This document shows, in pieces, positions 10,047 to 61,035 of a DNA stretch of 64,000 bases. A program made the position numbers and the translations under genes. The notes below the pieces were generated by a model, which saw only the letters and a list, made by a program, of their open reading frames with translations, did not search any database and had not been told where the DNA came from. Within the stretch, counting starts at the first letter, position 1, and every line of letters begins with the position of its first letter. The stretch spans positions 88,970,001-89,034,000 of the forward strand of contig OZ024744.1 in the NCBI GenBank assembly GCA_964016885.1, written 5' to 3'. The stretch is from Eledone cirrhosa (lineage: Eukaryota).

Positions 10047-10182
10047 GGCGTACGGTCTGCTTCTCTGACTGCTCATGAAATTCACCCAGATTATGCTGAT
10101 CGGATAACTATCATGATTGCTTGCTGTTTTCCCAACCTTCGGTTTGCTTTTCCTTCTGTTGTTTACTTTACGCGTTTCACTT

Positions 10183-10284
10183 GTCCCAATAGCTTATTTT
10201 AGTTATTGCTCGCACCAACCTGAGGTATCTGATTTTTAATGCGATGAAATACCAATGATGGTTGGCAAATCACTGATGAGGGAC
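10183..10284 (+). ncRNA. Putative non-circularly permuted hammerhead ribozyme with kink-turn (copy A1)
   Basis: GTCC-hairpin-TCGCA CCAACC TGA GGTAT C TGATTT TTAA TGCGA T GAA ATACC AATGAT GGTTGG C AAATCA CTGATGA G GGAC, with covariation across subfamilies. Confidence 0.7.
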
Positions 10285-10713
10285 TAATTTTATAATATGT
10301 AATCCATGTGCAACCATGCAGTATTCTTCTCCCCATGTTTTTCATATATATTTATCTAAACTGCGATTATCTGTTTCTCTCTTTCTCTCTTACTGCTCCC
10401 CCGTTCTCTCTGTTTCTCTTACCTACTTTCGTCCCCTCTGTCAGTTAACACTTTCTCTCGACTGACCTCTTCCTCGCACTTCCACTCACTCACTCTCTGT
10501 TTCTCCCCTTCTCACTTCCTCCCGTTCGCTAGTAGTGGGGTTCCTTCTTTCTCACACCGCATTCACGGCGTACGGTCTGCTTCTCTGACCGCTCATGAAA
10601 TTCACCCAGCTTATGCTGATCGGATAACTATCATGTGGCTTGCTGTTTTCCAACCTTTGGTTTGCTTTTCCTTCTGTTGTTTACTTGTCTCACTCGCTTT
10701 ACGCGTTTCACTT

Positions 10714-10815
10714 GTCCCAATAGTTTATTTTAGTTATTGCTCGCACCAACCTGAGGTATCTGATTTTTAATGCGATGAAATACCAATGATAGTTGGCAAA
10801 TCACTGATGAAGGAC
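10714..10815 (+). ncRNA. Putative permuted hammerhead (copy A2)
   Basis: Same 102-nt motif 531 bp downstream. Confidence 0.7.
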
Positions 10816-11058
10816 TAATTTTATAATATGTAATCCATGTGCAACCATGTTTTTCATATATATATATATATCTTAATTTTATAAATTTTATATAGAAATT
10901 ACTTTAATGTATGTGGGTATTTATGTACGAAGTGTGTGTATGTTAGTGGTCATAGAGTTCATACATAAACACGTCAACACAGAGTTATGTAAATTGTATG
11001 TATATGCAGGTGCATTATATGTATGTATATACATTACTGCTCTCTCACACACACATAT

Positions 11059-14013: not shown

Positions 14014-14135
14014 TGATTTTTAATGCGATGAAATACCAATAATCGTTGGCAAATCACTGATGAGGGACTCATTTTATAACTTGAAATCCATGTGCAACCA
14101 TGCAGTATTCTTCTCCCCATATTTTTCATACATAT
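14014..14135 (+). mobile_element. 5'-truncated copy of permuted-hammerhead subfamily A
   Basis: Begins tgatttttaatgcgatgaaatacc directly after (TA)n. Confidence 0.8.
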
Positions 14136-14142
14136 ATATAGT

Positions 14143-14361: not shown

Positions 14362-17300
14362 GTTTTTTTTTAAGAAGAAACGTAATTTATTATTGTACAA
14401 AATATAATTTAGAGAAATATCAGATGAAAGAATGGTATTTAACTAATGTAATGGTACGCGATGGGGCCCACCCACATACCCCGGCGGACAGAATGGAGAA
14501 GGCGTTTCCCCGGATGAGGCAAGGGAGACGCGCTGGAAAAGCCACTCCAACTCGCGGGGCTCACACCTGCGGGTGGCCAGCTCAGCGCCTATGGTGGTGA
14601 GTAAGGAAGTAGCCCTGGAGCCGAGGACACCAGAAGTCTCCACTGCCAGGAGTACAACCGCAAACCTGTCGGAGAGAGACAGGTATTTGAGGAGTTTGGC
14701 CCCCTCAGCCCGACTTGCAGCAGAACCTGGGTCAGTCGCAGACTGCACCAGGTTGCGGCTGCAGAAAGTGTCAGTGCAAGTGGCATCCCAGACGAGGGGT
14801 TTGCCACCGCGGAACGGGAAGATGGTCATGCCATCTGGCCTTTTGCCGTCCCCTCGGTCCAGCCACACCGGCTCGACCTGGGAAGGGAAGCCTGCAGAGT
14901 CTAAGCCATGCTTAATGACCTCGTTGAGGGCAGCATGGCGTGGAATGCGGGCGGCACTGTGGAGACAGGAAAGCGGGTGGAGGCCGAAAGAGTCCACGGT
15001 GGGACCGCAGCGACATTGGTGTGGCTGGCAGATCCGGAGGCCAAGCCTCAGGGAAACGCCGATTCGCAGGCTATGGTTTTCTATCTGCGTGCCAGTCGAG
15101 AAGGAGGGCAGGTCAATGAGCCAGGCACCACTGTGGGGTTTAGAGGTCGCACGAAAACAAGCAAGGCGGTGTTGGTCGAGCTGGCGCCTGAGCCTGTCTG
15201 AAGCCAGGCTGCAGTGGATGGCATCCCAAGTGCGTTGGGGGGACTTGACGTCAACAGGAGGAGAAGGAGGAGGGAAGTCTACTGAGCTAAGTCCCAGCCG
15301 GTCCCACGTCTCACAGGCGGCCACACGTTCTCTGAACACAGAGGGTTCTGTTCTGTTTTGAAGAACCCTGCTGACGAGGACGCGGCACAAGGTTACCGAC
15401 GAAAGATACGCCAGCAAAGCTAGTGAGATCGGGGACCGGAGGCCAAGGCCGCTATACCTGACCGGTAAATTGGCCTGTTGCCAACCTATGTCGTCAAACT
15501 TGACGTTGCATATCCCCTCGGCTGCTGCTCGGATACAAGTATCGAGGTCAGCGAGGAGAGATGTCTGGGTGTAGCATGGAGCGCTGCAGTGTATATAGAG
15601 GAGCTTCGGCATGGCGAAGCAGTTCCTCAGCAGAAAGAGAGCTGGGTGGCCGTCAATCAAGCCCAGTCGGCTCGTGAGAGTCTGGAGCTGTTGAAGCCTG
15701 GACCTGATGGTGGAGCGGATGGCCGGCGAGTGGATCGGTGACCCGAGGATGAGGACATCCTCTTTGGGGGGTCACCTGAACCTGGCGGAGAATGGACCGC
15801 AGCATCGAGGCTGACGTTCACCACCTCCAACTTGGCCGAATTGACCTGGAGGCCGATTCCCCCCAGGGCAGGAATCACCGATTGAAGGTCATGGCAGACC
15901 GTCCGTATGGGCCCGCCCAACGTAGCATCATCCAGATACCAAACGTTGAGAGGGGCCGTGATACTCCGGGCGATGTGGTCAATACGAAGGGCAAACAGGA
16001 GGGGTCCCAAAGGGTCGCCCTGTTGGACCCCAGTAGCCGAGGGTATGACCGTATCAGCAGCTAGGAGCATGCTCGAGGCTCCATATGACAGGTAGGCCAG
16101 CGTGTAGGCAGAGGGGGGTCGGCTTAGGCAGGCCTCGAGCAGATGATCCCGGCGTAAAGATTTAAAGGCATTCGTCATGTCAAGCTTGACAATGAGGCGC
16201 CTGGAGTCCCTGGATGCCGGTACCGATGGGCAGCTGCTGAAGAACTGCCTGATTGCATGAGAGGCTCCCTCACAGCCACCGGACACGCCGACATCCAGTT
16301 GCACCGGACTAAATTCCTCACCCAGTTCGTGTGTGACGGACTTGCAGATCACCTTGGCAGCCAGCCTCCGGAAGACGTTGCCCACAGCAATGGGGCATTT
16401 GCTACCCTCTTTCTTCCTGAGAGCGGTGAGGCTGGCTGAACAAAAGGGGCCTCGGGCGTAAGGGTCGAGGGCACAATGAATGAGCCTATTGGTGAGCGCC
16501 ACAATTGCACTCAGAAGGCGACGCCCGGCCAGAGCGGAGAGGGGGGATGTCAACTCCTTGAGGTGGCCTGGTCGGAGACCACCAACACCTCTGCAGCTGC
16601 TAGCTGGGAAGGACCTGATGGCGGCCATGATATCTGCATCAGTAGCCACAAGGAGCAAGTGGGGATCGGGTGGGAGTATGGGTCTGAGATCAGTCGGTGG
16701 TTCAGTGTGTTTGAGCCGCAGAGCAGCCAGGACCTCCTCGGTGGGTTGGAGGACAGTGTCCTCTGAGGCAACAACACTGACTGCGGCCAAGACATCACCC
16801 ATGATAAGCTTTGCGTTTACCTGGTCAAACGCTTGGCGCTGGCCTTGGGGGTGGAGGATAGGGGGTACCTGAGGCTGGGGTGTGTGTCGTCCCTAGGCAC
16901 GCTTGGAATGGCGCTCGCCCAAATGACGAGACATTGGCCTTGACGAAGGCTGCTGTTGACCGGCCGCGGTCAGCGCCAGAGCTGGGGAGGCCGAGGGCAA
17001 GTGGGGCGAAATAGAACAGCCGCTCCCAGTCACTGGCTCGATAGGAGTGCAGGGCGCTCTCAATCGCGGAAGCGAGGGCATCGGCTACCGGCACCCATGC
17101 CACTCTCGGGATCCTGAATGGGATCTTCCGGAGCCACCTGAGCCGAGCGATGTTGACCAGCGAGGCTCGGGCGCCAGGCAAGCTCGCTGTCCCATCTGGT
17201 GGTGTGCCAGACGGCCGTGGCTGGGAAGACGTGGGAAAGGGGCAGCTCCTGCACCTCCACGCTGCGAGAGCATTGGAAGCTCGACGAGTCAAGCCAACGC

Positions 17301-17400
17301 AGGTGAGGTGGTGGAAGCAGCCGCACCCTAAACAGTTCCGGCCCCTCTTCCGTTTGTTATTATCCTCGCTTTTGTTTTCATTCATTGCCAGGGAACGTCT
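14362..17400 (-). mobile_element. CRE-clade non-LTR retrotransposon (PHD-like finger, RT, zinc knuckle, REL endonuclease), frameshifted
   Basis: ORF 16825..17385 has C..C..FHHLTCVGL..WRCRSC. ORF 15657..16802 has PIAVGNVFRRL, LDMTNAF, GVQQGDPLGP and WYLDD. ORF 14443..15660 has CRCG..HPLSC..RHAALN..EP..DGKRPDG..WD. A short A-tail lies at about 14362-14371. Confidence 0.88.
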
Positions 17401-17401
17401 C

Positions 17402-17664
<263 letters not shown>

Positions 17665-17704
17665 TGTTAGAAGGTAAGCGGACATAATGAAAAGATGAAA
17701 AGTT

Positions 17705-17816
17705 TCTCTTCGTCAGCTTTTTACTACGGATCATGGATGTTTCTGCGCATTATAAACAGCACATCGATCCGTAGCGCGCCCCTGGCCTTTTGTCTATTAA
17801 AAGGCCACGAGGGAAA
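17705..17816 (-). ncRNA. Putative permuted hammerhead, most divergent subfamily D (probably inactive, GUG at the cleavage site)
   Basis: GCGCG CTACGG ATC GATGT G CTGTTTA TAA TGCGC A GAA ACATC CATGAT CCGTAG TAAAAAG CTGACGA aligns without gaps (70 nt) to subfamilies A-C. Confidence 0.65.
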
Positions 17817-18224
17817 GAAGTGATAGCGAAGAGCGAGGGAGAAAGAAAAAGGGAAGAAGGAAAAAATGAAGTAAATATGCCGATAGAAAGGCGAACACAG
17901 GATAATGGCACATGTATGTGAGTAACCGAAGAGAAAATAGATCAAGTTTAACCAAGCCCATTTGCCATAATTACGGTGAGCAGGTAATTCTGTGGCGATT
18001 CTCAGTAAAGTGAGGGTAGAGAGAGAAAAAGACGGAGAAACCGGAAGTGAGAATAGTAGAGGACAGAGGGGGAGAGTAAGAGTGATAGAGGGAGAGGAGG
18101 AGGAGAAGGGAAAGGGAGTCAATCCAAAAGGGTTTGTGTTTACGACGCACGTGCGTCCGACGCCGAAAAATAATTTAATGGATAGAGAGGAAGAGAGAGA
18201 GGGGGAGAGAGAGAGAGAAGAGAT

Positions 18225-18259
<35 letters not shown>

Positions 18260-18349
18260 GAGATGGTGGGGGGAATAAGTCCGACGTGGAACAACAAATC
18301 GAGCGAGACAGGTAGAGAAGATGTCACCGCAGTAAATATATATATATAT

Positions 18350-27224: not shown

Positions 27225-30007
27225 TAGGGTGTTCCAGAATCCCACAATTTACACAAAAGTGTTTTTTTCTTAACTCCCTATGCATTTTCTCATGTCATTT
27301 TGTATATTATCAATTTATAATGTAATTTTGATTATTTCAGACTAATTTAAGCCTTGCCTAATAGTTGTAAATTGGCAGAATAATGGCGGAATCCAGTGGG
27401 CCTAGATGTAGCTACTCGCTCCGTTGTGATGATCGAGAAATATGGCTCATGGGGCAATATGTTACATACTTTTCACCAAACAAAATACCAACAAAGGGGG
27501 ATGTTCTAAGATATTTCTTCTACCTGAAAGATGGTCCTATGAAACACGAAAAGCATGTGAGCTTTAATGGTGCTGTTGCGGATAGGCTTGTGATGGAAGT
27601 AGTTAGTCCGTGGGGAAAAAGCTGGTGTGGCGACTCAACGAAAAGGCAAAGTGAAACTGAAAATTATGAACATGTACAGTGAATACAGAAATTTACAAAA
27701 AAACAAAGGTTCTAAGTCAAACAAAGAAAAGGAAGCACTATTTATTTCTGAATTGGATTCATATTTCTACATTGCACATACTGATGCTGAAAAGAAAATT
27801 TTGAAAGACCGTCTTCGTAATAATGAACAGAAAATGGAAGATGCTACATTTCTCGAAGTCCTGCGTTGCCAGAAAAAAGTATCTCTTGGTGCTGAAGACA
27901 AGGGTTACCAGAAAAAGGTATCTTCAAAGTTTAAGTGTGATCAGGTTTCTGTGGCTCGTCGAGAGTCAGAGAACCATAGAAAACGTTTGTCAGGATCTGT
28001 AGCAGCACAACTTCCACGTAATGAACTGAGTGATTCAAGTTCAACCAATGATGAAACTGAAGATGAACAGGATCCTGAATTTCAGGCCTCAAACCCACCC
28101 AGAGACAGCTCAAAGTCAGACAAGAAACGAAAAATCCAGCTGGAACTCCCAAAGAATCCATTTCAAAGTCCAAAAATGTCTCTAATGGCTGATCGTTTAA
28201 ACCTGACACTGGGCCAGAGAACAGCATTTATGGCATCGATTATTTCTGAGGGTGAGACTGACATAGACGCCACAACTCTCTCCAAGAATAGTAGCAGACG
28301 TTCAGCTAAGAAAATCAGAACTGTGGGGGCTGAACACATAACGGAACAATTTGCTGTACCAGACTTTGTTATCTTGCATTGGGATGGCAAAATAATTCCT
28401 GGTGACCACGAGAGGCTAGGTGTGCTAGTTGCTGGAACTCCGAACTTCAGAGAAGGTAAACTCCTCGGTGTTCCCATAATTCCTGATGGCACTGAAACCA
28501 CCCAAGCCAAAGCATCATTTGATCTTGTTAAAGATTGGAATGTTGATAGGTCTGTGATGGGCTTGGTCTTCGACTCAACTGCTTCGAATTCTGGATGGAA
28601 AAATGGTGCCTGCGTGAAACTAGAAGAGAGGCTCAACAAAAAGGTGTTTTATTTTGCTTATCGGCACCATGTCATGGAGCATATCTTGTGTGCAGTGTGG
28701 CAACAACTATTCGGAGCAATGTCCAGTCCAGACACCCCAGAGTTCAAGGAGTTCATAAGAGATTGGATGTCACTCACTGACAAGACCAACTTTAAAACAT
28801 TGAACATTGTCGACCGGAGACTCAAGCGTCTGTGTTCTGAGAACATCAAGTTCCTTGCTGACATCCGACGATGGGGAAATGAGTTCTCTTCCACGGGATG
28901 ACTACCGAGAATGTGCCGAGTTGATGTTGATCTTGCCTGGTGTCACCCCTCCTCGTGGAATTCATTGGATGCTGCCTGGTGCACATCCTAACGCTCGGTG
29001 CATGTCCACAATCATCTATAGTTCAAATATTTATGCATTTGGTGAGCGACTCAATTATGATCAAGCTAAAATGGAAAAGTTGCGCCGGATCTGTATATTC
29101 AATGCTCTGTTCTACGTGCGATACTGGCTGACAGCAGTCAAGTGTGCTGATGCACCATCCAATGACCTTCACTTCTACGTGGAGTTGACACAGTACAGTA
29201 AGGTTGACAGAGATCTCTCGCAGGCAGCCACTACTGCTCTGAGCAGGCATCTTTGGTACCTGACGGAGGAAACCATTCCACTAGCACTGTTTTCAAGTCG
29301 GGTCCAAGAGTCCAAGAAGAAACAAATAACCCAACGTCTTGTCAAAACGAAAACGTCTGGGCCTCTCGACCGTGGTGCTCCAGTATTTCCCGAGTTGAAG
29401 TCGTCCACGAAGCTGCCTCATCTAGTTGGGAAGAAATCAAGGCTTCTGTTCGATCTCCTTGGTCTCAACGATACTTGGCTTGAGCTGTCACCTGCAACTT
29501 GGTCATCACAAGCGTCATATCGAAATGCCTGTGTTGTTGTTCACAATATCAAGGTAGTCAACGATCTGGCGGAGAGAGCAGTCAAGTTGATAACTGATTT
29601 TGTTGCCATCACCAAGAATGAGGAGGAGAAGCAGTGTGTTCTTCAAGTAGTCGAAGCTCATCGTCGCAAGGTCCCGGATTTCAAAAAAGAAACTCTGAAA
29701 AGAATATGACTGGAGTTAACTTAACTGAACTTGTTTCTTCCTTGTACGCCTTTATATTCAAAGCTGGTTTACTAAATATAATGGATTAATAAAATAAACA
29801 ATTATTGTATGGTCATATTTGGTTTCACATTTTCATGATTTCATGCAACATAATCACACTTTCTACTATAATCACCATGATATAGGCAAGACTCAAAATA
29901 ATTTATTTTATACAAAATATGTTTTATTTTACGAATTGGGGCATTTATAATGGGAAAATATATAGGGAGCGTTAGTACTGTAACCTTGCTTTTTATGGCA
30001 CACTCTA
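27225..30007 (+). mobile_element. hATm-like DNA transposon, full length
   Basis: Termini TAGGGTGTTCCA / TGGCACACTCTA, flanks ATGTATAT / ATATATAT (7/8 TSD), and an inverted subterminal ctccctat..attttc.cat motif. Confidence 0.75.
27383..29709 (+). pseudogene. DDE transposase (hATm-like), split by two frameshifts
   Basis: ORFs 27383..27682, 27627..28901 and 28807..29709 carry LHWDGK, FDSTASNSG, AYRHH (CxxH degenerated), RHLWYL and VVNDLAERAVKL. Confidence 0.8.
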
Positions 30008-30694: not shown

Positions 30695-33600
30695 ATTTTC
30701 AACAGTAATACTATACTATATATTTTCAACAGTAATACTGTACTATATATTTTCAACATTAATACTATACTATATATTTTCAATATTAATACTCGATTGG
30801 CAGTATCGGTAGAGGGTCGGACGCCATGCTTTCCAGCATAGTTACGTCCCTTTACGATCTGAGTTCAAATCCCGCCGAGGTTGACTTTGCCTTTCATCCT
30901 TACGGGGTCGATAAAATAAAGTACCAGTAATGCACTGGGTAATTGCTGGCCTTGTGCCTAAAGTAGAAACAAATATTAATACTATACTATATATTTTCAA
31001 CAGTAATACTATAATATACTATACATTTTCAACAGTAATACTATACTATTCTATATATTTTCAACAGTAATACTATACTGTATGTTTTCAACAGTAATAT
31101 TATACTATATATTTTCAACAGTAATAATGTGCTATACTATATAGTTTCAACAGTTATACTGTACTATATATTTTCAACAGTTATACTGTACTATATATTT
31201 TCAACAGTAATACTATACTATATATTTTCAACAGTAATACTGTACTATATATTTTCAACATTAATACTATACTATACTATATATTTTCAACAGTAATGCT
31301 ATACTATATATTTTCAACAGTAATACTATACTTTACATTTTCAACAGTAATTCTATACTATACTATATATTTTGAACGGTAATACCGTACTATATATTTT
31401 CAACGGTAATACTGTACTATATATTTTCAACAGTAATACTATACTATATATTTTCAACAGTAATACTATACTATATATTTTCAACAGTAATACTATACTA
31501 TATATTTTCAACAGTAATACTATATTATATATTTTCAACAGTAATACTGTACTATATATTTTCAACAGTAATACTATATTATATATTTTCAACAGTAATA
31601 CTATACTATATATTTTCAACAGTAATACTATACTATATATTTTCAACACTAATACTATACTATATATTTTCAACAGTAATACTATACTATATATTTTCAA
31701 CAGTAATACTATACTATATATTTTCAACAGTAATACTATACTATACTATATATTTTGAACGGTAATACCGTACTATATATTTTCAACGGTAATACTGTAC
31801 TGTACTATATATTTTCAACAGTAATACTGTACTATATATTTTTAACAGTAATACTATACTATATATTTTCAACAGTAATATTATACTTTACATTTTCAAC
31901 AGTAATTCTATACTATACTATATATTTTGAACGGTAATACCTACTATATATTTTCAACGGTAATACTGTACTATATATTTTCAACAGTAATACTATACTA
32001 TATATTTTCAACAGTAATACTATACTATATATTTTCAACAGTAATACTATACTATATATTTTCAACAGTAATACTATACTATATATTTTCAAAAGTAATA
32101 CTGTACTATATATTTTCAACAGTAATACTATATTATATATTTTCAACAGTAATACTATACTATATATTTTCAACAGTAATACTATACTATATATTTTCAA
32201 CACTAATACTATACTATATATTTTCAACAGTAATACTATACTATATATTTTCAACAGTAATACTATACTATATATTTTCAACACTAATACTATACTATAT
32301 ATTTTCAACAGTAATACTATACTATATATTTTCAACAGTAATACTATACTATATATTTTCAACACTAATACTATACTATATATTTTCAACAGTAATACTA
32401 TACTATATATTTTCAACAGTAATACTATACTATATATTTTCAACAGTAATACTATACTATACTATATATTTTGAACGGTAATACCGTACTATATATTTTC
32501 AACGGTAATACTGTACTGTACTATATATTTTCAAAAGTAATACTGTACTATATATTTTTAACAGTAATACTATACTATATATTTTCAACAGTAATACTAT
32601 ACTTTACATTTTCAACAGTAATTCTATACTATACTATATATTTTGAACGGTAATACCGTACTATATATTTTCAACGGTAATACTGTACTATATATTTTCA
32701 ACAGTAATACTATACTATATATTTTCAACAGTAATACTATACTATATATTTTCAACAGTAATACTATACTATATATTTTCAACAGTAATACTGTACTATA
32801 TATTTTCAACAGTAATACTATATTATATATTTTCAACAGTAATACTATACTATATATTTTCAACAGTAATACTATACTATATATTTTCAACACTAATACT
32901 ATACTATATATTTTCAACAGTAATACTATACTATATATTTTCAACAGTAATACTGTACTATATATTTTCAACAGTAATACTATATTATATATTTTCAACA
33001 GTAATACTATACTATATATTTTCAACAGTAATACTATACTATATATTTTCAACACTAATACTATACTATATATTTTCAACAGTAATACTATACTATATAT
33101 TTTCAACAGTAATACTATACTTTACATTTTCAACAGTAATCCTATACTATACTATATATTTTGAACGGTAATACCGTACTATATATTTTCAACAGTAATA
33201 CTGTACTATATATTTTTAACAGTAATACTATACTATACTATATATTTTCAACAGTAATACTGTACTATACTATATATTTTCAACACTAATACTATACTAT
33301 ATATTTTCAACAGTAATACTATACTATATATTTTCAACAGTAATACTATACTATATATTTTCAACAGTAATACTATACTATATATTTTCAACAGTAATAC
33401 TGTACTATATATTTTCAACAGTAATACTATATTATATATTTTTAACAGTAATACTATACTATATATTTTCAACAGTAATACTATACTATATATTTTCAAC
33501 ACTAATACTATACTATATATTTTCAACAGTAATACTATACTATATATTTTCAACAGTAATACTATACTATATATTTTCAACACTAATACTATACTATATA

Positions 33601-34482
33601 TTTTCAACAGTAATACTATACTATATATTTTCAACAGTAATACTATACTATATATTTTCAACACTAATACTATACTATATATTTTCAACAGTAGTACTAT
33701 ACTATATATTTTCAACAGTAATACTATACTATATATTTTCAACAGTAATTCTATACTATACTATATATTTTGAACGGTAATACCGTACTATATATTTTCA
33801 ACGGTAATACTGTACTATATATTTTCAACAGTAATACTATACTATATATTTTCAACAGTAATACTATACTATATATTTTCAACAGTAATACTATACTATA
33901 TATTTTCAACACTAATACTATACTATATATTTTCAACAGTAATACTATACTATATATTTTCAACAGTAATACTGTACTATATATTTTCAACAGTAATACT
34001 ATATTATATATTTTCAACAGTAATACTATACTATATATTTTCAACAGTAATACTATACTATATATTTTCAACACTAATACTATACTATATATTTTCAACA
34101 GTAATACTATACTTTACATTTTCAACAGTAATCCTATACTATACTATATATTTTGAACGGTAATACCGTACTATATATTTTCAACAGTAATACTGTACTA
34201 TATATTTTTAACAGTAATACTATACTATACTATATATTTTCAACAGTAATACTGTACTATACTATATATTTTCAACACTAATACTATAATATATATTTTC
34301 AACAGTAATACTATACTATATATTTTCAACAGTAATACTATACTATATATTTTCAACAGTAATATTATTCTATATATTTTCAACAGTAATACTATACTAT
34401 ATATTTTCAACAGTAATACTATACTACATATTTTCAACTGTAATACTATACTACATATTTTCAACAGTAATACTATACTACA
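30695..34482 (+). repeat. 27-bp minisatellite (ttttcaacagtaatactatactatata)n with higher-order variant blocks
   Basis: 9-aa periodicity in the ORF track (IFNSNTILY) and recurring variant units such as ttttgaacggtaataccgtac. Confidence 0.97.
30794..30972 (+). mobile_element. SINE inserted into the minisatellite, 12-bp TSD
   Basis: aatattaatact at 30782-30793 and 30972-30983. Confidence 0.9.
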
Positions 34483-37270: not shown

Positions 37271-37494
37271 ATAATATATAAGATCAAAAGATGGTTAAAG
37301 GAGTTCCATGTATTTTATTATGCGCATTTCAAATATGTTGATTTAAAACTGCACTATCCACAAGTGTTTTTTAGCCTTCATATCATGTTCTCCTGTTTTA
37401 TCTGATGAAAACACAAATATTATTGCATGATGATGTTTGTTTTTGAAATGCGCATAATAAAATACATGGAACTCCTTTAACCATCTTTTGATCT

Positions 37495-39895: not shown

Positions 39896-40765
39896 ATATA
39901 TATATATAAATATATATATAACCAAAAGTTAAATGCGGATGAATTTTAAAGACCATAAAGGAAATTTCGAAGAGGACTTGCCTGTTAGACTTATCGCACC
40001 TTCTAAGTCAGACATTGGAATAATTAGTAAAAACATAATAGATAGAATTTTGCCAACCTTATCATTGAGGTCAAGGCTTAACTTATGGAAGGACACTAGT
40101 GAAGTCGTAGATTGGTTTAGGAACATTAAAAATAAGAAAAATCATAAATTTATTCAAATGTACATAGCGAGCTACTACTCCTCAATAACTCCTAACCTTT
40201 TGAATAAGGCACTTTTATACGCATATAAACACACTGATCTATCTAGTGAGGAGATTAATATTATTTTAACGGCTAGGCGAACCTTGATTAACTTTAAAAA
40301 AGAATTTCGACATTGCCATGGGATCGTCCGACTCTGCGCAAGTTACCGATCTTCTGGGAATTTTTATCCTTAATATGATAAATAGAAAACTGCCGGAGAT
40401 TACCGGTGGTTTATATAGAGATGATATATTACTTACTGTAGTTAAATATAGCAATGGTGAATTAAATAGAGTAAAGAAAATAATTATAGAATTCTTTAAA
40501 AATTACGACCTAAAATTAGAAGTGGAAAGTAACAGTAAAATAGTTAACTTCCTAGACGTAACCCTTAATTTAAACTCAGGCCTATATTACCCCTTCCATA
40601 AACCCAATGAAAACCTAAATTATGTTAGTTTTTATTCTAATCCTCCTAAATGTGTTAAAAATGCAATAGTCAATAGTGTTCAACAACGTTTAACTAGATT
40701 ATCTGCTAACAAATCCATTTTTAATAGTAAAGCTGAATATTATAATGAAGCGTTGCATAAAGCAA

Positions 40766-40872
40766 CCTCCCGCCGAGGTTGACTTTGCCTTTCATCCTTA
40801 CAGGGTCGATAAAATAAAGTACCAGTAATGAACTGGCTAATTGCTGGCCTTGTGCCTAAAGTAGAAACAATT
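40766..40872 (+). mobile_element. 5'-truncated SINE with ~26-bp TSD
   Basis: attataatgaagcgttgcataaagca at 40739-40764 and 40870-40895. Confidence 0.9.
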
Positions 40873-41319
40873 ATAATGAAGCGTTGCATAAAGCAGGATA
40901 TAAAAATAATATTGAATATGTAGAAAATAATAATTGTAATTATAAACAAAATGTTCATAATAATTGAAATAATATAAATAAAACTGACTGTAAAAATAAA
41001 AATAAATATTTAAATAAAAATAGCAATTTCGAGAATAAATCAGTGAAAAAAATTAGTACTAGATCTATTATTTGGTATGCCCCACCAGCATCTTTAGCTA
41101 TTAAACGACCTTTAGCACATTTATTTTTTAAAGCGTTGGATAAATGTTTCCCTAGAACACGTAAATATTACTCTATCTTCAATAGACACTCAGTTAAACT
41201 CTCTTACTCAACAACTATGAATATGGCTCAAAATATTGCAAAAATAAATAGTAGAATTCCTAGTTCTAACCAACATATAATTAGCGATAATGGCAATAAT
41301 AATAATGATGATAATAATA

Positions 41320-44300
41320 ATGATTTCATTTATTAGCCACAAGGGCCGACATGTAGGGGACAATACAAAGACAGGGACAGTGGGGTTTACAATAAGGTGG
41401 AATAAAAGTGCACAATGGCAAGACTAACTTAACAATGAAAATATAAAAATATAAAATAAACTATGCATAAATATAACAAAATAAATTCCCTGGGGTGCTT
41501 CAGGTACCCCACCAATCCTGAACCACCCTGCGCTTCTAGGGCACCCATGGAGAGCACCCCTCTCCTCAAGTTAGCCAGCCTATAGGCGCATAGTCAGAGT
41601 AGGCCCATTCACACGAGCCATTCTCGACACATTCACCCACCTTTCGACACATTCACCCACCCAAATGTACTGGGGGGCAGCACTTCTCTCTCCACCCTCA
41701 CCTTCCTTTCCAGGTGAAACTTGAAGAAGTTGATGAGGGATTGGCCGAAGAGAAAAGTGTCTGTCTTTAGTCCTTTCAACCTGGTCCACCATATAATCTC
41801 TTTCGCAACTGCCACCAGACAGAGGAAAATTTCCTGCTCTTCCTGACCTAAGGAAGGCGGTGGATCGATCTTCACTATGGACTCGGCCGATGGCCGGATT
41901 CGTTCCACACGCGACAGTAGCTGTTCGACATAACTCCACAAGTCAGTAATGCACGGACATTGGACAAGTGCGTGCAGAACGGTTTCTTCGTTCTGTGCGC
42001 ATCTTGGGCAGGTCATTCTGACAGCCCTTCCGTGCCTGTAGAGATTATCCCGAACCGGCAGTGCCCCCCGGTAGCACTGCCAAGCGAGGGATTTCTGGAA
42101 ATTGTCCATCGTCCCCGGCTCAAAAGTCCTCCGGTACAGACTGGTCAGTTCGACTTCGTCGAGGCCTAAAGCTTCTCCGAGTGCGTCATCGTACTTGCCC
42201 ACCACTAATCCTCTATAGAACTCGAGAGTGGAAGTTCCACTGATCGCATTGCCCGCTTGGTAGAGGGCAGTGAGTGCCTGGCAACATTCCAGGTACCCGT
42301 CACCCAGTCTCGGTCTCTTCTTGACCCAGGACTGCAGCTCAGTCAGAGAAATGAGCTGCGGAAAGGCCCGTCTGATAAACGGCGACCACACCTGTTCAAG
42401 ATTGAGGCAGAATATCTGGAGATGTCGCAGCCTCAACGCATGTCTGCGCATCATTAGCCACGGCATGCCCAGCCCTCCGCGTAGAGGGTGCTGGCAGCAG
42501 ATGGACCGCCTCACCAACGGAACTTGTCCCCTCCACAAGAATTTGAAGAGGAGCCGTTCCAACTTGACGAGGCGCGGACGGGGGCAAGGCACGACGGTTA
42601 GGCGGTAGTAGATGACGGACGCGATGTACGCATTCGCCACCTCCGCGCGACCTTTCAGTGATAGCTTCCTCCCAGCCCATTTTTGGGTGAGACTGGCTAC
42701 TCTGCTCGTTACCTCGTCCCAATTCTTTTCCACCTGGAGGTCTGGTCCGAACCAAACCCCGAGCAACCCCACGACGCTGTTGGACGGCATGGGCTTGCCT
42801 TTCCAGGTTCCGAGCTGCAAGCCCACCGACTTTTCCGGGTTAAGTTTAGCTCCTGTCAACCTTTCATATTCCTTCAATAAGGTGCCGACCACCTCGATTT
42901 CTGAGGTGTTCGACACCATCACGGTGATGTCGTCCGCATAAGCCGACACCGCCTTTCCACGTCCCGGTTCGAGCCGGATGCCCTGCAACAGCTCCAGCTT
43001 CCGCAGTAAAGGCTCGAGAGTCAATACGTACAGAAGGGAAGAGAGAGGGCACCCTTGACGGACCGATCGGGAGAGCCGGAATGGTTCCGAGAGGTGGCCA
43101 TTAACTTTGACCACCGAATATGTGCCGCTGTGCATTGCAGCGATCCAGCTTCTAAAGACAGGGCCGAAGCCAGCTGCTTTGAGGACAAACTCCAGATACC
43201 GATGGTCGACCCTATCGAACGCTTTAGATTGATCTAAATTGGTCAGTGCCCCACCGAAGCCAGGTTTACACCCTACCCTCTCTATGATGTATCGCATGAG
43301 GTGGAGATTGTCGTGTATGGACCTGGCTGGGATTGCGCAAGTTTGCGCCTCCCCAACCAAATCCTCGACGACAAGCGCCAATCTCTTTGCTAACACCTTG
43401 GCCAAAATCTTAAACTCTGTGTTGAGCAGAGTTATGGGCCTGAAGTTGTCTAATGTATCCCTCTTGTTCTCGTATTTCCTTATCAGCGTCACCACTCCCC
43501 TACTCACACAACTGGGAATACTCCCATTCTGCTGCCAGTTGCAGTAGAGTGCTTCGAGGAGTTCGGAGAACAAGTCTGGCATATTTACGTAAAGCTCGTA
43601 GGGCAGGCCAACCAAACCGGGTGACTTGCGCCTAATACAGCCGACAAGGGCGTCCTGAATTTCGGCTGAAGTAATCGGCCTTTCGCAAGGCTCAGCGTTG
43701 ACCGTAGAGATGCGTGGCAAGCCGTCAAGGTAGGGACTGAAATCCGCTACTCTCTCTGACTCCCCACTCTCTCTGAACAACCGAGCAAAGTGCTGGCGAA
43801 AGGCCTCACACACCCGCTTGAAATCGCTTATCTCGTGTCCATCTCGGTCCGCCAAAGACCGAATTGTGGTTTTATTACCACGCTGCGCCTCCGCCACGCG
43901 GGCCCACCGAACAGCTTTAGTTCCCTCGTTTCTCAGCGCACGCGCCTTAGCTCTGACAATGCAACCTTCGTGTTTGGCATTGAAGAAATGGTCTAATGCC
44001 ATTCTCGCCGCTAACACGTCAGTTGCGATGCCCCTACAAATAGCCTCGTCTAACTTATCTACCAGCTCCCCCTCCTTTCTATTTTTCTCTAACGCTAGTT
44101 CTTTGCTGAACTCTATCGAAGTTACTCTAATCTCTCTTTTGAGAGCCACCCACCATCTGTTGTTGGTGATCCCCCCTGTCAACTTTTGCTTAACTAAATT
44201 GTTGACTCTGTCCCTGTAAGCCTTACGTGCCGGAAATGACATGTTCAGCTTCCAGTAACCCGGTCCTAACCTACACGTTTTATTTAGGTCGACCGTACAG

Positions 44301-44958
44301 ATCACAAATTTGTGATCTGAATAGGCGACCGTTTTAAAAAGTGGACAGCCCACACTATTTCTATCTATTTTCCTAATGAAGATCCTGTCTATATACGATC
44401 TAGATGACCCCATTCGGTTGGTCCATGTCCATACTGGCACATTGGGGAAATCTAGTCGATACCTGTCAGACAGTTGGAACTGGCTGAGTAGGTGCTTGAG
44501 GCTTTTGCACCCCCGCTCCTATCGGCTACTCCCACACAATCCCAGCGTGCGTCTAAGATGCTATTCCAGTCCCCCGCTAACAGTAAAGGGCGAGACGTAC
44601 CCAGAAAGGTCTCCAGGCGCCTAAAGAAGTCAGGTCGTCCGGCCCCTGTAGGGGCGTAGACGGCCAGCAGTCTAAAGGCACCACCTTCGCTACTGCTCAC
44701 ATCGAAGACCACCAACTTACCGTCCGGGTCCCGGAAGATCGACCTTACCTCGAGATCCAGTCCTTTCCTAAACAGCACTTCCACCCCACCCCCATTCCCG
44801 GCCTGCTAACAGATGCGAAGATCTGATAGTCGTCGAAAATGGGGGCTAGTGCGCGCGTGTCGGAAATTCTGGTCTCGCTTACGGCAATCACATCCATTTC
44901 CAGCGACCGGAGGTCGTTGAGCAGGCGACCCTGCTTCCAGAGTGACCCCAGGCCGCGA
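41320..44958 (-). mobile_element. Tx1/L1-clade LINE (ORF2 and 3' UTR) inserted in (AAT)n
   Basis: APE motifs RGL..SET, AGDWNSILD, YIDRIF and SDH; RT motifs NFRPITLLN, LDQSKAFDRV, VRQGCPLS and AYADD; C-terminal CPRC..ETVLHALVQC; end aataaatgaaatcattatt. Confidence 0.92.
41633..44440 (-). CDS. LINE ORF2 (endonuclease C-part, RT, zinc knuckle), 935 aa open
   Basis: ORF track. The upstream APE part is frameshifted (44452..44784). Confidence 0.85.
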   Translation of the reverse strand: MPVWTWTNRMGSSRSYIDRIFIRKIDRNSVGCPLFKTVAYSDHKFVICTVDLNKTCRLGPGYWKLNMSFPARKAYRDRVNNLVKQKLTGGITNNRWWVALKREIRVTSIEFSKELALEKNRKEGELVDKLDEAICRGIATDVLAARMALDHFFNAKHEGCIVRAKARALRNEGTKAVRWARVAEAQRGNKTTIRSLADRDGHEISDFKRVCEAFRQHFARLFRESGESERVADFSPYLDGLPRISTVNAEPCERPITSAEIQDALVGCIRRKSPGLVGLPYELYVNMPDLFSELLEALYCNWQQNGSIPSCVSRGVVTLIRKYENKRDTLDNFRPITLLNTEFKILAKVLAKRLALVVEDLVGEAQTCAIPARSIHDNLHLMRYIIERVGCKPGFGGALTNLDQSKAFDRVDHRYLEFVLKAAGFGPVFRSWIAAMHSGTYSVVKVNGHLSEPFRLSRSVRQGCPLSSLLYVLTLEPLLRKLELLQGIRLEPGRGKAVSAYADDITVMVSNTSEIEVVGTLLKEYERLTGAKLNPEKSVGLQLGTWKGKPMPSNSVVGLLGVWFGPDLQVEKNWDEVTSRVASLTQKWAGRKLSLKGRAEVANAYIASVIYYRLTVVPCPRPRLVKLERLLFKFLWRGQVPLVRRSICCQHPLRGGLGMPWLMMRRHALRLRHLQIFCLNLEQVWSPFIRRAFPQLISLTELQSWVKKRPRLGDGYLECCQALTALYQAGNAISGTSTLEFYRGLVVGKYDDALGEALGLDEVELTSLYRRTFEPGTMDNFQKSLAWQCYRGALPVRDNLYRHGRAVRMTCPRCAQNEETVLHALVQCPCITDLWSYVEQLLSRVERIRPSAESIVKIDPPPSLGQEEQEIFLCLVAVAKEIIWWTRLKGLKTDTFLFGQSLINFFKFHLERKVRVEREVLPPSTFGWVNVSKGG

Positions 44959-46909: not shown

Positions 46910-46976
46910 TATTTTATCTGATGAGGACGTACTGAAAAAAATAGCACAGTACCTCCGAAATATATATAATAAAATA
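46910..46976 (+). ncRNA. Type I hammerhead at the 3' end of the PLE
   Basis: tattttat-CTGATGA-ggacgtactg...cagtacctcc-GAAAT-atat-ATA-ataaaata. Confidence 0.85.
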
Positions 46977-49299: not shown

Positions 49300-52290
<2,991 letters not shown>

Positions 52291-52317: not shown

Positions 52318-52405
<88 letters not shown>

Positions 52406-52409
52406 ATAT

Positions 52410-53020
52410 ATATATTAATTAAAAAATAGAACAAGAAACCAGGACTATCCATCATCAGTGATCTTCTGGCCATCATCGATATTTCTTCGCATTAAAGAGC
52501 AGATACTTCAAGCCAGCGCGAACAATAACTAAATTAAGTTATTGGGATAAAAAGAATTGGGTGGAAAAAGAGAGACATGTAAACATACAAAAATGGTAAG
52601 GCAACATAAATAGAGGAAAATGAGAAAACAAATCAGTGATACATGTGAACTTAAGTTCTAGCAAATCAATGACGAGAAGACGAAGGACGCGTCCGAACCC
52701 TGCGAAATGTAAGCGAGAAAAGGATATCACACAGGTCAGACGGAATGAAGTGAGAGAGGGGGAGTAACAGAGAGTGAGTGAGTGAAAGTGTGAGGAAGGG
52801 GCCAGCCGAGAGAGGGTGACCAGCAGAGGGGGTGAATGAAAGTAAGAGGTACAAGGAGAGATAAGGGGGAGAGAGAAAGAGGAAAGCAGTAAGGGAAAGA
52901 AAGAGACAGGTCACGGCGGGGGGAAGAAATATAGGAATGAAAAATGGTGTGCTGCGTTGTTGCGAATGTAATACATATGAATTAAAAAATACAGCAAGAA
53001 ACCAGGACTATCCGTCATCA
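52410..53020 (-). mobile_element. Non-coding element (563-bp period) carrying permuted hammerhead subfamily C
   Basis: caagaaaccaggactatcc.tcatca is repeated at 52432 and 52995, and the purine-rich strand resembles 59760-60400. Confidence 0.75.
52447..52548 (-). ncRNA. Putative permuted hammerhead (copy C)
   Basis: ATCC-hairpin-TCGCG CTGGCT TGA AGTAT C TGCTCTT TAA TGCGA A GAA ATATC GATGAT GGCCAG AAGATCA CTGATGA T GGAT. Confidence 0.7.
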
Positions 53021-53198
53021 CATATATATATATATCCTCCATTCGCTCCCTCCCTTAAGCCACAGTATATAGAGTATATAATCTATACATTATACAAGCT
53101 ATATTACTGTATGCTGCGCTATCTCTTTTATTTTTATACCTTTCTCACACACATATATATATATAATATATATATATATAAATGTAATGAAGAACTTA

Positions 53199-54806: not shown

Positions 54807-54849
54807 ACTATATATTATTATTATTAATATTATTATTATTATTATAAGC

Positions 54850-57749
54850 AAATGTTGACAGGGGGATCATCAACAACAGATGGTGGGGGGCTCTCAAAAG
54901 AGAGATTAGAGTAACTTCGATAGAGTTCAGCAAAGAACTAGCGTTAGAGAAAAATAGAAAGGAGGGGGAGCTGGTAGATAAGTTAGACGAGGCTATTTGT
55001 AGTGGCATCGCAACTGACGTGCTAGCGGCGAGAATGGCATTAGACCATTTCTTCAATGCCAAACACGAAGGTTGCATTGTCAGAGCTAAGGCGCGTGCGC
55101 TGAGAAACGAGGAAACTAAAGCTGTTCGATGGGCCCGCGTGGTGGAGGCGCAGCGTGGTAATAAAACCACAATTCGGTCTTTGGCGGACCGAGACGGACA
55201 CGAGATAAGCGATTCCAAGCGGATGAGTGAGGCCTTTCGCCAGCACTTTGCTCGATTGTTCAGGGAGAGTGGCGAGTCAGAGAGAGTAGCGGATTTCAGT
55301 CCCTACCTTGACGGCTTGCCGCGCATCTCGACGGTCGATGCTGAGCGCTGCGAAAGGCCGATTACTTCAGCCGAAATTCAGGACGCCCTTGTCGGCTGCA
55401 TAAGGCGCAAGTCACCCGGTTTCGATGGCCTGCTCTACGAGCTTTACGTAAATATGCCAGACTTGTTCTCCGAACTCCTCGAAACACTCTACTGCAACTG
55501 GCAGCAGAATGGGAGTATTCCCAGTTCTGTGAGCAGGGGAGTGGTGACGCTGATAAGGAAAGACGAGAACAAGAGGGATACATTAGACAACTTCAGGCCC
55601 ATAACTCTGCTCAACACAGAGTTTAAGAGTTTGGCCAAGGTGTTAGCAAAGAGATTGGCGCTTGTCGTCGAGGATTTGGTTGGGGAGGCCCAAACTTGCA
55701 CAATCCCAGCCAGGTCCATACACGACAATCTCCACCTCATGCGATACATCATAGAGAGGGTAGGGTGTAAACCTGGCTTCGGTGGGGCACTGATCAATTT
55801 AGATCAATCGAAAGCGTTCGATAGGGTCGACCATCGGTATCTGGAGTTTGTCCTCAAAGCAGCTGGCTTCGGCCCTGTCTTTAGAAGCTGGATCGTTGCA
55901 ATGCACAGCGGCACACGCTCGGAGGTCAAGGTTAATGGCCACCTCTCGGAACCATTTCGGCTCTCCCGATCGGTCCGTCAAGGGTGCCCTCGCTCTTCCC
56001 TTCTGTACGTATTGACTCTCAAGCCTTTACTGCGGAAGCTGGAGCTGTTGCAGGGCATCCCGCTCGAACCGGGACGTGGAAAGGCGGTGTCGGCTTATGC
56101 GGACGACATCACCGTGATGGTGTCGAACACCTCAGAAATCGAGGTGGTCGGCACCTTATTGAAGGAATATGAAAGGTTGACAGGAGCCAAACTTAACCCG
56201 GAAAAGTCGGTGGGCTTGCAGCTCGGAACCTAGAGAGGCAAGCCCATGCCGTCCAACAGCGTCGTGGGGCGCTGGACGGACGGACCGGTAAAGTTGCTTG
56301 GGGTTTGGTTCGGACCAGACCTCCAGGTGGAAAAGAATTGGGACGAGGTAACGAGCAGAGTAGCCAGTCTCACCCAAAAATGGGCTGGGAGGAAGCTATC
56401 ACTGAAAGGTCGCGCGGAGGTGGCGAATGCGTACATCGTGTCCGTCATCTACTACCGCCTAAGCGTCGTGCCTTGCCCCCGTCCGCACCTCGTCAAGTTG
56501 GAACGGCTCCTCTTCAAATTCTTGTGGAGGGGACAAGTTCCGTTGGTGAGGCGGTCCATCTGCTGCCAGCACCCTCTACGCGGAGGGCTGGGCATGCCGT
56601 GGCTAATGATGCGCAGACATGCGTTGAGGCTGCGACATCTCCAGATATTCTGCCTCAATCTTGAACAGGTGTGGTCGCCGTTTATCAGACGGGCCTTTCC
56701 GCAGCTCATTTCTTTGACAGAGCTGCAATCCTGGGTCAAGAAGAGACCGAGACTGGGTGACTGGCACCTGGAATGTTGCCAGGCACTCACTGCCCTCTAC
56801 CAAGCGGGCAATGCGATCAGTGGAACTTCCACTCTCGAGTTCTATAGAGGATTAGTGGTGGGCAAGTACGATGACGCACTCGGAGAAGCTTTAGGCCTCG
56901 ACGAAGTCGAACTGACCAGTCTGTACCGGAGGACTTTTGAGCCGGGGACGATGGACAATTTCCAGAAATCCCTCGCTTGGCAGTGCTACCGGGGGGCACT
57001 ACCGGTTCGGGATAAACTCTAAAGGCACGGAAGTGCTGTCAGACGGACCCGCCCAAGATGCGCACAGAACGAAGAAACCGTTCTGCACGCACTTGTCAAT
57101 GTCCGTGCATTACTGACTTGTGGAGTTATGTCGAACAGCTACTGTCGCGTGTGGAACGAATCCGACTATCGGCCGAGTCCATAGTGAAGATCGAGCCGCC
57201 ACCTTCCTTAGGTCAGGAAGAGCAGGAAATTTTCCTCTGTCTGGTGGCAGTTGCGAAAGAGATTATATGGTGGACCAGGTTGAAAGGACTAAAGACAGAC
57301 ACTTTTCTCTTCGGCCAATCCCTCATCAACTTCTTCAAGTTTCACCTGGAAAGGAGGGTGAGGGTGGAGATAGAAGTGCTGCCCCCCAGTACATTTGCGA
57401 AAAGGTGGGTGAATGTGGCGAGAATGGCTCGTGTGAATGGGCCTACTCTGACCATGCGCCTATAGGCTGCCTAACTTGAGGAGAGGGGTGCTCTCCTGGG
57501 TGCCCTAGAAGCGCAGGGTGGTTCAGGATTGGTGGGGTACCTGAAGCACCCCAGGGTCGTAGACCCCCTATCGGGGAATTTATTTTGTTATATTTATGCA
57601 TAGTTTATTTTATATTTTTATATTTTCATTGTTAAATTAGTCTTGCCATTGTGCACTTTTACTCGACCTTATTGTAAACCACCACTGTCCCTGTCTTTGT
57701 ATTGTCCAACTACATGTCGGCCCTTGTGGCTAATAAATGAAATCATTAT
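54850..57749 (+). mobile_element. Tx1/L1-clade LINE, second 5'-truncated copy with stops
   Basis: ORFs 55019..56233, 56246..57022 and 57058..57465 are nearly identical to the 41.6-44.4 kb copy. It has the same 3' end and is preceded by (ATT)n. Confidence 0.92.
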
Positions 57750-58931: not shown

Positions 58932-59760
<829 letters not shown>

Positions 59761-60398
59761 AATATGAATAAAGTTAGTCCTTTATCAGTGATCTTCCAAC
59801 CATCATTGGTATATCATCGCTTTAAAGACCATATACCTCCGGTTGGTGCAAGCAACGGCTAAAAAAAGTCGTTGGGACACGTAAATAAAGGGGACACGAG
59901 AGTGTAAAGAAACAAAGATGGTGAAGCAACGAAAAGTAAGGAAGAAGGAGTCAAGTCCAAAATTTCCATGAATATAAGTTCGGTGAAATCGTGAACGAGG
60001 GAGAATAAAGACCATCAAACCTGGTTGGAATGTGAGCAAGGAAGGAATTCCGTACAGGTCTAACGGGAGGAAGAAGGGGTCTAGTCTGTGAATTCGGTGA
60101 ACGCAAGTTCTGTGAAAGACGAGAGAGAGAAAAAAAGCGACCTGCCTGACCAAGGGTGCGAAAGAAAGGAATTACGCGCAGGTCAAACGGGAAGAAGGAG
60201 AGGTAGTAACAGAGAGTGAGTGAGTGAAGGGTGAGGAAGAGGCTAACAGAGAGAGTGACTGTTAGAGAGTGTAAAGATACAGAGAAAGAGGAAGCAGTAA
60301 GAACGAAATAGACGGGTCACAGCGGGGGAAAAAATATGTGTAAATATGAGAATAAACGTGCTGCGTGGTTGCTAATGGGTTACATATGAATAAAGTTA

Positions 60399-60500
60399 GT
60401 CCTTCATCAGTGATCTTCCAACCATCATTGGCATTTCATCGCTTTAAAGACCATATACCTCCGGTTGGTGCGAGCAACGGCTAAAAAAAGTCGTTGGGAC
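60399..60500 (-). ncRNA. Putative permuted hammerhead (copy B2)
   Basis: Intact CTGATGA and GAAA; stem III GGTAT/ATGCC keeps pairing through a U-G wobble. Confidence 0.7.
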
Positions 60501-60820
60501 ACGTAAATAAAGGGGACCTGAGAGTGTAAACAAAAAAAGATGGTGAAGCAACGAAAGGTGAGGAAGATCTCTCGTCTACGATTTCACAGAACTTACGTTC
60601 ACCGAATTCACAGACTAGATCCCTTCTTCCTCCCGTTAGGCCTGTACGGAATTCCTTCCTTGCTCACATTCCAACCAGGTTTGATGGTCTTTAATCTTTC
60701 TCGTTCACGATTTCACCGAACTTATATTCATGGAAATTTGGGACTTGACTCCTTCTTCCTCACTTTTCGTTGCTTCACCATCTTTGTTTCTTTACACTCT
60801 CGTGTCCCCTTTATTTACGT

Positions 60821-60922
60821 GTCCCAACGACTTTTTTTAGCCCTTGCTCGCACCAACCGGAGGTATATGGTCTTTAAAGCGATGAAATACCAATGATGGT
60901 TGGAAGATCACTGATGAAGGAC
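60821..60922 (+). ncRNA. Putative permuted hammerhead (copy B3)
   Basis: TCGCA CCAACC GGA GGTAT A TGGTCTT TAA AGCGA T GAA ATACC AATGAT GGTTGG AAGATCA CTGATGA A GGAC. Confidence 0.7.
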
Positions 60923-60969
60923 TAACTTTATTCATATGTAACCCATTAGCAACCACGCAGCACGTTTAT

Positions 60970-61035
<66 letters not shown>

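Follow-up and report, generated by a model that had tools for sequence, protein, structure and literature searches.

A complete hammerhead core, newly arranged, in a covarying RNA structure with many copies in the genome of Eledone cirrhosa

Introduction

The three core blocks of hammerhead ribozymes of types I, II and III follow one another in the orders C-G-S, G-S-C and S-C-G. A non-circular permutation, type SGC, was described by Eckert et al. (2023; PMC10085705) and cleaves. According to that paper the type comes from metatranscriptomes and, apart from one GCS candidate, from no genome of a known organism, and it is assumed that block C cannot be interrupted. HRIMA-1 has a short U-rich linker and, after CUGAUGA, a bulged U, stem II, usually one purine and an interaction strand (PMC10085705). 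The published SGC ribozymes are slow (0.007-0.13 per min, with longer constructs), and a helper protein has been suggested (PMC10085705). The same text leaves open how the interaction helix can adjoin the end of stem III. In hammerheads the G10.1-C11.1 pair is highly conserved (Cervera 2014, PMC4209133).

Hammerheads are also known from mobile elements. Metazoan non-LTR retrozymes (PMC7229834) carry type I hammerheads in units of 150-450 bp, and their RNA and its circles have been shown. In the pseudo-LTRs of Penelope-like elements (PLEs), next to an ORF, there are minimal hammerheads of type I, the palindromic helix III of which is tiny (PMC4209133).

The stretch of 64,000 nucleotides analysed here (contig OZ024744.1) is referred to as the window. 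The initial annotation had reported from it a motif with the core strands in the order NUH, GAAA, CUGAUGA. This order is that of the published type SGC, which self-cleaves, and the statement made there that non-circularly permuted hammerheads had been reported agrees with the same paper (PMC10085705). The motif, being S-G-C, has the block order of none of the types I-III. Overall, the results are best explained, with a probability of about 0.7, by a self-cleaving hammerhead of the S-G-C class with an unpublished connectivity, located in retrozyme-like units.

Occurrence of the motif in the window and in the genome

All seven copies listed by the initial annotation were found at their positions and on their strands. 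A core pattern with up to three mismatches gave 8 matches in the window against 0.05 expected, and none of 100 shuffles reached 8. The window also holds two further fragments of the motif, at about 14015-14068 (+) and at 61994-62052 (+). The copies are as follows.

10183-10284 (+): motif copy 1, subfamily A; core positions and stems all intact
10714-10815 (+): motif copy 2, subfamily A; single mismatch in helix d, predicted cut after 10760
14015-14139 (+): A-type copy, 5'-truncated, starting approximately at the predicted cut site, between (TA)n runs; eighth core match at about 14015-14068
17705-17816 (-): copy of subfamily D, which its GUG triplet probably renders inactive; host unit from about 17660 to 18330
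52447-52548 (-): subfamily C copy with one mismatch each in stems I and III; host unit about 52405-53022
59777-59878 (-): subfamily B copy with a broken core (GAUA, CUGAUAA); downstream member of a 622-nt tandem
60399-60500 (-): subfamily B copy, intact; predicted cut after 60454
60821-60922 (+): copy of subfamily B; its unit, at about 60582-60975, is inverted and 5'-truncated and abuts the 5' end of the B tandem
61994-62052 (+): subfamily H, degenerate 3' fragment (E 0.015)

Three of the seven listed copies are damaged, namely 17705 in the cleavage triplet, 59777 in the core and 52447 by its stem mismatches. The cleavage triplets AUC or AUA, which had been assigned to the motif as a whole, do not apply to the D copy at 17705, which has GUG and, moreover, A instead of C before GAAA; the other D copies mostly have GUC or GUU.

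In the genome (3.0 Gb), the pattern GAAA-N5-AUGAU-N12..14-CUGANGA gave at least 14,196 exact matches compared with 14 for the reversed control, and C follows GAAA in 565 of the 14,196. Two subfamilies lie outside this pattern: H, with 558 genome matches (control 0), and G, with at least 42 matches when 40 of 835 candidates were scored. A sequence-blind S-G-C descriptor found 9 matches in 464 kb, two new subfamilies among them, and none in the reversed control. The natural variants of the motif thus span at least eight subfamilies. A-type units reach 97% identity to the window copy, which indicates recent spread, and the E and F copies are old.

Pattern matches in viral contigs (24 loci, 8 distinct), in prokaryote genomes (17) and in metagenomes (at least 120 loci, 97 distinct among the matches listed) failed the stem test, in which the best score outside the own genome was 10 of 12 among the matches listed, and 47 of 64 own copies scored 11-12. 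A sequencing run of a second organism gave four contigs with a depth of 2-10 on the unit, which is too thin to count as a second species.

Anatomy of the motif and covariation of its helices

Read from 5' to 3', the first half of copy 10183-10284 consists of one strand of helix a, hairpin b, one strand each of helices c and d, 3 nt and the stem III strand with U16.1 and H17. After H17 (10229) follow the stem I strand, a linker, the partner strand of helix c, N11.1, and GAAA with the stem III partner. The 3' part is formed, in order, by 6 nt, the partners of helix d and of stem I, CUGAUGA, N10.1 and the partner of helix a.

10183-10186 (+): helix a, 5' strand, partner 10281-10284, holding the two ends of the motif; 98.4% paired, G-C replaced by A-U in 9 of 46 rows, also predicted by ViennaRNA
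10187-10208 (+): hairpin b, the second inserted arm of the stem II four-way junction; 4 of 8 pairs change on both sides
10210-10214 (+): 5' strand of helix c, through which the 5' end of the motif provides the distal part of stem II, partner 10240-10244; 87.4% paired
10215-10220 (+): helix d strand; 96% paired, 5 of 6 pairs change on both sides
10221-10223 (+): non-bulged strand of the putative k-turn (3n, 2n, 1n); 2n is G in 43 and T in 3 rows, 1n is A in 44 of 46, and these positions are absent from the search pattern
10224-10229 (+): stem III, 5' strand, with U16.1 at 10228 and H17 at 10229 (base counts from 46 rows); predicted cut after 10229
10230-10235 (+): stem I strand 3' of the cut site, partner 10267-10272 (pseudoknot); 97.1% paired, 3 of 6 pairs change on both sides
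10236-10245 (+): short linker from stem I to stem II, similar to the short U-rich linker of HRIMA-1, then the helix c 3' strand and N11.1 (10245)
10246-10253 (+): G12-A13-A14-A15.1 and the stem III 3' strand (46-row alignment)
10254-10259 (+): bulged strand of the putative k-turn, with a 3-nt bulge, 1b G, 2b A and 3b; positions partly fixed by the search pattern
10273-10280 (+): CUGAUGA core and N10.1 (10280), partner 10245; 45 of 46 rows paired, with three pair types

In A, K and D, the nested fold predicted by ViennaRNA contained helices a, b, d and III. Single-strand folding gave a strong z-score for D (-4.2) and weak ones, from -0.8 to -1.6, for A, B, C and K.

The main alignment comprised 46 full-length copies of the A/B/C type, picked by eye from 105 distinct ones; the choice excluded copies that were truncated, rearranged or of the D/E/F type as well as a few that were nearly identical, and a separate alignment was made of 19 D copies. 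The helices and the covariation quoted in the initial annotation were borne out on these 46 and 19 copies. In the 46 rows, 95.1% of 1608 cells were paired, compared with 87.1 +/- 0.4% after shuffling and 25-42% with slid partners, and 156 cells carried a change on both sides, compared with 48 +/- 8 after shuffling (0 of 500 shuffles reach this value); the rows go back to a few master copies, so the cells are not independent events and kinship inflates the pairing figures. The number of covarying pairs, 17 of 35, was within the shuffle range (45 of 500). Covariation is good in helices b, d and I. The weakest support is that of helix c: one of its pairs is doubly changed (6 rows), and the outermost, 10214:10240, is paired in 29 of 46 rows and may be a 1-nt linker; its sequence differs and still stays paired in subfamilies D, G and H. 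Stem III is near-invariant within A/B/C and differs between subfamilies while remaining paired. In subfamily D, 88.7% of cells were paired (19 rows). G.U pairs outnumber A.C mismatches by 82 to 32, which indicates that the structure belongs to the RNA of the motif strand.

The strands of stems I and III close the core with the right partners (97% and 96% paired). U16.1 is kept in 45 of 46 rows, and H17 is C in 24, A in 22 and never G; neither position is part of the search pattern, which does partly fix CUGANGA and GAAA. GAAA and CUGANGA are kept under all 11 subfamily labels, as are stems I and III, the sequences of which differ. In this comparison the greedy helix finder was relied on for stems I and III only; for B, C2, C3, J2, D2, E and F it misplaced helix a, b or c, and for C3 helix d as well. 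The likeness among the A/B/C units is 68-78% in the sequence around the motif and 77-82% in the motif itself, and conservation is thus no decisive argument when taken alone. Taken together, the motif is genuine: an RNA structure that covaries, occurs in high copy number and contains the complete hammerhead core, newly arranged.

The likeness to such a core might also be that of an RNA signal which is structured without being catalytic and which serves the PLE reverse transcriptase as a handle or binds a protein at a k-turn similar to box C/D. The location of the motif near the 3' insertion end of its unit, where a reverse transcriptase handle is expected, is consistent with this explanation. 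However, the avoidance of G at H17 and the covariation of the pair 10.1-11.1 are predicted by hammerhead chemistry and would not be expected of a non-catalytic signal, and subfamilies D and G, which have no k-turn, keep CUGANGA, GAAA, UH and the three stems. A non-catalytic role is thus quite improbable.

Stem II is split

The initial annotation had assigned the right partners to all three core strands. This is correct for stems I and III; for stem II it is untrue beyond one base pair, since the strands after CUGAUGA and before GAAA pair at one position only. CUGANGA contributes at most the pair 10.1-11.1, and the remainder of stem II is supplied by the 5' end of the motif. In 45 of 46 rows the base that follows CUGANGA forms a pair with the one that precedes GAAA, namely U.G in 17, A-U in 16 and U-A in 12. 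Past this pair the strand leads off into helix a. A rival partner of N11.1 in A/B/C, position 10209, was rejected, as it was paired in only 9 of 36 rows.

N11.1 is U or A in all 46 A/B/C rows, which therefore have no G10.1-C11.1 pair. In D and G this pair is present, with 10.1 supplied by the 5' strand of helix c (14 of 19 D rows; 7 G copies). In D, G and part of H, helix a begins directly after A9 and helix c extends up to GAAA; in subfamilies A2 and A3, stem II pairing is possible either way, and in several H copies an A at 11.1 has no Watson-Crick partner. In every subfamily in which helix a could be placed, it follows the core. These variants may be branch-migration forms of one four-way junction, with helix c stacked on the core and helix a on helix b, a three-dimensional stacking that we infer as a model of the junction. 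Compared with the published type SGC, the chain would be opened between A9 and the stem II strand, with helices a and b filling the gap. The counterpart of the opening point in HRIMA-1 would be one bulged U, and the former ends, the interaction helix and stem III, would be joined, mostly via a k-turn.

The absence of G10.1-C11.1 from the abundant A/B/C types is a point against hammerhead activity. The motif may be a hammerhead-derived fold that alone cleaves poorly or not at all and needs a protein, for instance a k-turn binder of the L7Ae family, or a tandem partner, or that is a fading relic in the common subfamilies. The non-G-C pair at 10.1-11.1 in A/B/C and the shortness of helix c are in line with this, as are the low rates and the suggested helper protein of the published SGC ribozymes (PMC10085705) and the fact that metazoan repeat hammerheads often work as dimers (PMC7229834, PMC4209133). 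Stem III of the motif, however, has a full length of 5 bp, and what usually makes hammerheads fold as dimers does not apply here. Moreover, the pair 10.1-11.1 shows compensatory change among young subfamilies, which indicates ongoing constraint, and the A type has spread recently. Poor or absent cleavage is therefore considered unlikely, and self-cleavage of the motif, as judged from its sequence, is likely.

The junction between stem III and helix d

In the A/B/C rows, a 3-nt bulge is followed by 1b G (45 of 46), 2b A (46) and a closing C (46), with 2n G in 43 and U in 3 and 1n A in 44. The k-turn consensus is thus found in these rows and is replaced in D, by plain pairs and a 3-nt bulge, and in G, by a bulge on the opposite strand. 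Subfamily H, the first copy of which came from the sequence-blind descriptor, keeps the 3-nt bulge and GA. Subfamilies H and J2 have A.U at 2b.2n, a variant known from the k-turn Kt-23 (Schroeder and Lilley 2009, PMC2790904). The likeness to a k-turn lies in the 3-nt bulge followed by G.A and A.G; the difference is that in the motif the element links two ribozyme helices and is absent from D and G. On these sequence features the junction probably adopts the k-turn fold. D and G carry bulges in place of the k-turn, and a bend therefore matters more than the k-turn itself. No natural k-turn hammerhead was found in a search of the full-text literature available. At the join of stem III and the interaction helix, which Eckert et al. 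(PMC10085705) left open, the predicted k-turn would supply the sharp bend.

The k-turn strands read like box C/D motifs, and the sole Rfam matches of the motif are very weak ones to C/D snoRNA (E 0.6-0.9), with nothing at the gathering score. Both observations fit the non-catalytic explanation considered above.

Comparison with published systems

The motif has the order S, G, C of type SGC, and it shares with it two core pseudoknots, a stem II of about 5 bp, the short U-rich linker that connects stem I with stem II, the lengths of the linkers and a helix that joins these two stems at their distal ends (helix d, covarying in 5 of 6 pairs) (PMC10085705). In the type SGC rows compared, block C (CGAAA ... 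CUGAUGA(U)G and stem II) is uninterrupted, C precedes GAAA, and CUGAUGA(U)G leads directly into stem II and the interaction strand at the 3' end. In the motif these two strands are located at the 5' end, and block C is broken up by helices a and b. Furthermore, both strands of the motif connect stem III with the interaction helix, and it is a high-copy animal repeat. An assignment to HRIMA-1 or to a variant of the published SGC was rejected, given the interruption of block C and the single match of a loosened descriptor in loci of the own genome. A search of the open full-text literature found neither a report of the wiring of the motif nor one of a non-circular hammerhead in an animal genome. 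Hammerhead variants with extra stems are known (Weinberg 2015). Passages of PMC13725137, PMC11662667 and PMC10162972 give nothing further on this wiring; the alignments of Eckert 2023 (PMC10085705) may include a rare row that has it.

Like the metazoan non-LTR retrozymes, the units of the motif are non-coding, low-GC tandems with one ribozyme motif each, thousands of copies and PLEs as the likely mobiliser (PMC7229834). The differences are the S-G-C core instead of type I and the unit length of 445-762 nt. With the hammerheads of PLE pseudo-LTRs the motif shares the layout, the multiplicity of families, the compensatory changes and an insertion between positions 9 and 10.1 (PMC4209133; Craig et al. 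2021), and it differs from them in not being a minimal type I motif beside an ORF.

The comparison with the Rfam hammerhead models proposed in the initial annotation gave no match at the gathering score, a result to be read with the fact that Rfam also misses the ordinary minimal hammerheads of the window. These are of type I and PLE type, with a tiny palindromic helix III, and several have U before GAAA.

37402-37464 (+): minimal type I hammerhead
46918-46976 (+): minimal type I hammerhead
59402-59454 (+): minimal type I hammerhead, within the long inverted repeat 58957-59689
59192-59244 (-): minimal type I hammerhead, within the same inverted repeat

Two further loci, L279 and L311, contain a type I-like motif with extra hairpins in stem II, and its sequence after CUGAUGA resembles subfamily F. 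This motif is a possible evolutionary link between the classical and the rewired form.

The host element and its mobilisation

The host element of the first two copies is a partial tandem of a non-coding unit.

10047-10855 (+): partial tandem of a 531-nt non-coding unit (cut to cut 10230-10760), flanked by (TA)n

Neighbouring copies on the same strand are spaced by 445-762 nt (21 pairs), in arrays of up to four copies. The longest ATG ORF in a doubled A unit encodes 49 aa, and the A and B units have no ATG ORF above 66 aa. The A, B and C units are related end to end (68-78%), with a GC content of 43-44%, and A and D units gave no alignment. The units 10230-10760 and 59833-60453 are about 67% C+U on the ribozyme strand. 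A (TA)4+ run occurs within 150 nt downstream of A9 in 85 of 115 copies, compared with 14.6% of random places; part of this count is a short internal TA run in tandem copies. Inverted 5'-truncated partner units occur, in agreement with published accounts of PLEs (bioRxiv 2021.04.23.441226).

PLEs with intact 775-aa ORFs are abundant in the genome. The window holds a copy of a young PLE and fragments of other PLE families that are candidate mobilisers.

50919-52025 (-): 5'-truncated copy of a young PLE, with GIY-YIG; the element has many intact 775-aa ORFs at 96-98% identity
6752-7363 (+): fragment of another PLE family, no Pfam match
40288-41261 (+): fragment of another PLE family, no Pfam match

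By their motifs, the last two are presumably Nematis-like. Around intact PLE ORFs, one of 14 ten-kb loci held a motif copy, on the opposite strand and about 2 kb downstream. With five protein probes, a PLE protein match was found within 1.5 kb of 7 of 132 motif copies, none of them continuous upstream, and no 3' end shared by the unit and an autonomous PLE was found. The unit as a part of the young 775-aa PLE (fragment 50919-51947 (-)) was rejected, as the 14 PLE loci have no joined motif. Between the two tandem PLE ORFs of locus L073, no hammerhead was detected by regex, which is odd for this clade. 'No hammerhead detected' has been reported for some retroelements (bioRxiv 2021.04.23.441226), and the present results suggest that in some cases this may be a problem of the descriptor.

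The partial tandems, the inverted truncated partner and the (TA)n target correspond to the layout of PLEs, the pseudo-LTRs of which carry hammerheads (PMC4209133). The unit could thus be the pseudo-LTR of an unseen autonomous PLE, most copies being its 5'-truncated ends, with no separate circular RNA, and the many PLE families in the genome, probed with five proteins, leave room for such an element. However, tandems that run from motif to motif over 445-762 nt, in up to four copies and without an ORF, speak against it, as does the scarcity of PLE proteins near the motif (7 of 132 copies) and of the motif at PLE loci (1 of 14, on the opposite strand). A pseudo-LTR origin is therefore very improbable.

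A check for 5' truncation at the cut site returned 562 matches, and the first 100, read by eye, gave no clear excess, which would fit poor cleavage of the motif. Of these 100, roughly half stop at TA microhomology immediately ahead of the anchor; some 4 begin precisely at the cut and show no homology, and another 12 or so are ambiguous.

Further repeats and coding remnants were observed in the window, including a repeat that we take to resemble an octopus SINE.

41633-44518 (-): LINE reverse-transcriptase copy
54848-57397 (+): inverted second copy of the same, 97-98% identical
14443-17457 (-): frameshifted non-LTR retrotransposon (RVT_1), downstream of the D copy with (CA)n(TA)n between
27603-29709 (+): two overlapping long ORFs resembling a DNA transposase, no Pfam match
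30977-34480: 27-nt tandem array of about 126 copies

Discussion

The preferred explanation, a self-cleaving S-G-C hammerhead in retrozyme-like units, leads to the following scheme of spread. In a tandem transcript each motif would fold and be cut after H17 (10229), releasing unit-length RNA with a 5'-OH and a cyclic phosphate, ends that belong to the established chemistry of hammerheads. The unit RNA would then be closed into a circle by a host ligase or by the ribozyme itself. The PLE reverse transcriptase/endonuclease would prime at nicked (TA)n on the short UA-rich stretch just downstream of the motif and copy the RNA in a single round or in several, which would leave partial tandems whose 5' ends are random. 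This scheme of mobilisation follows the retrozyme model (PMC7229834). The repeats probably use the motif to cut their RNA into spreading units, and circles of unit RNA together with mobilisation by PLEs are somewhat favoured by the sequence organisation described above.

More tentatively, the motif could be an active natural hammerhead outside all six three-block permutations, with more than 14,000 copies, in which the k-turn lets a protein of the L7Ae family (15.5K/Snu13) tune the cutting or re-joining of circular retrozyme RNA. As part of the same speculative proposal, the wiring would amount to a non-circular permutation that is itself circularly permuted, and stem II would hold a four-way junction.

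If the motif cleaves, both the assumption of an uninterruptible block C and the non-genomic limit of the type described by Eckert et al. (PMC10085705) fall. Moreover, if the proposed wiring is true, standard descriptors would miss this class of hammerheads in other animals too.
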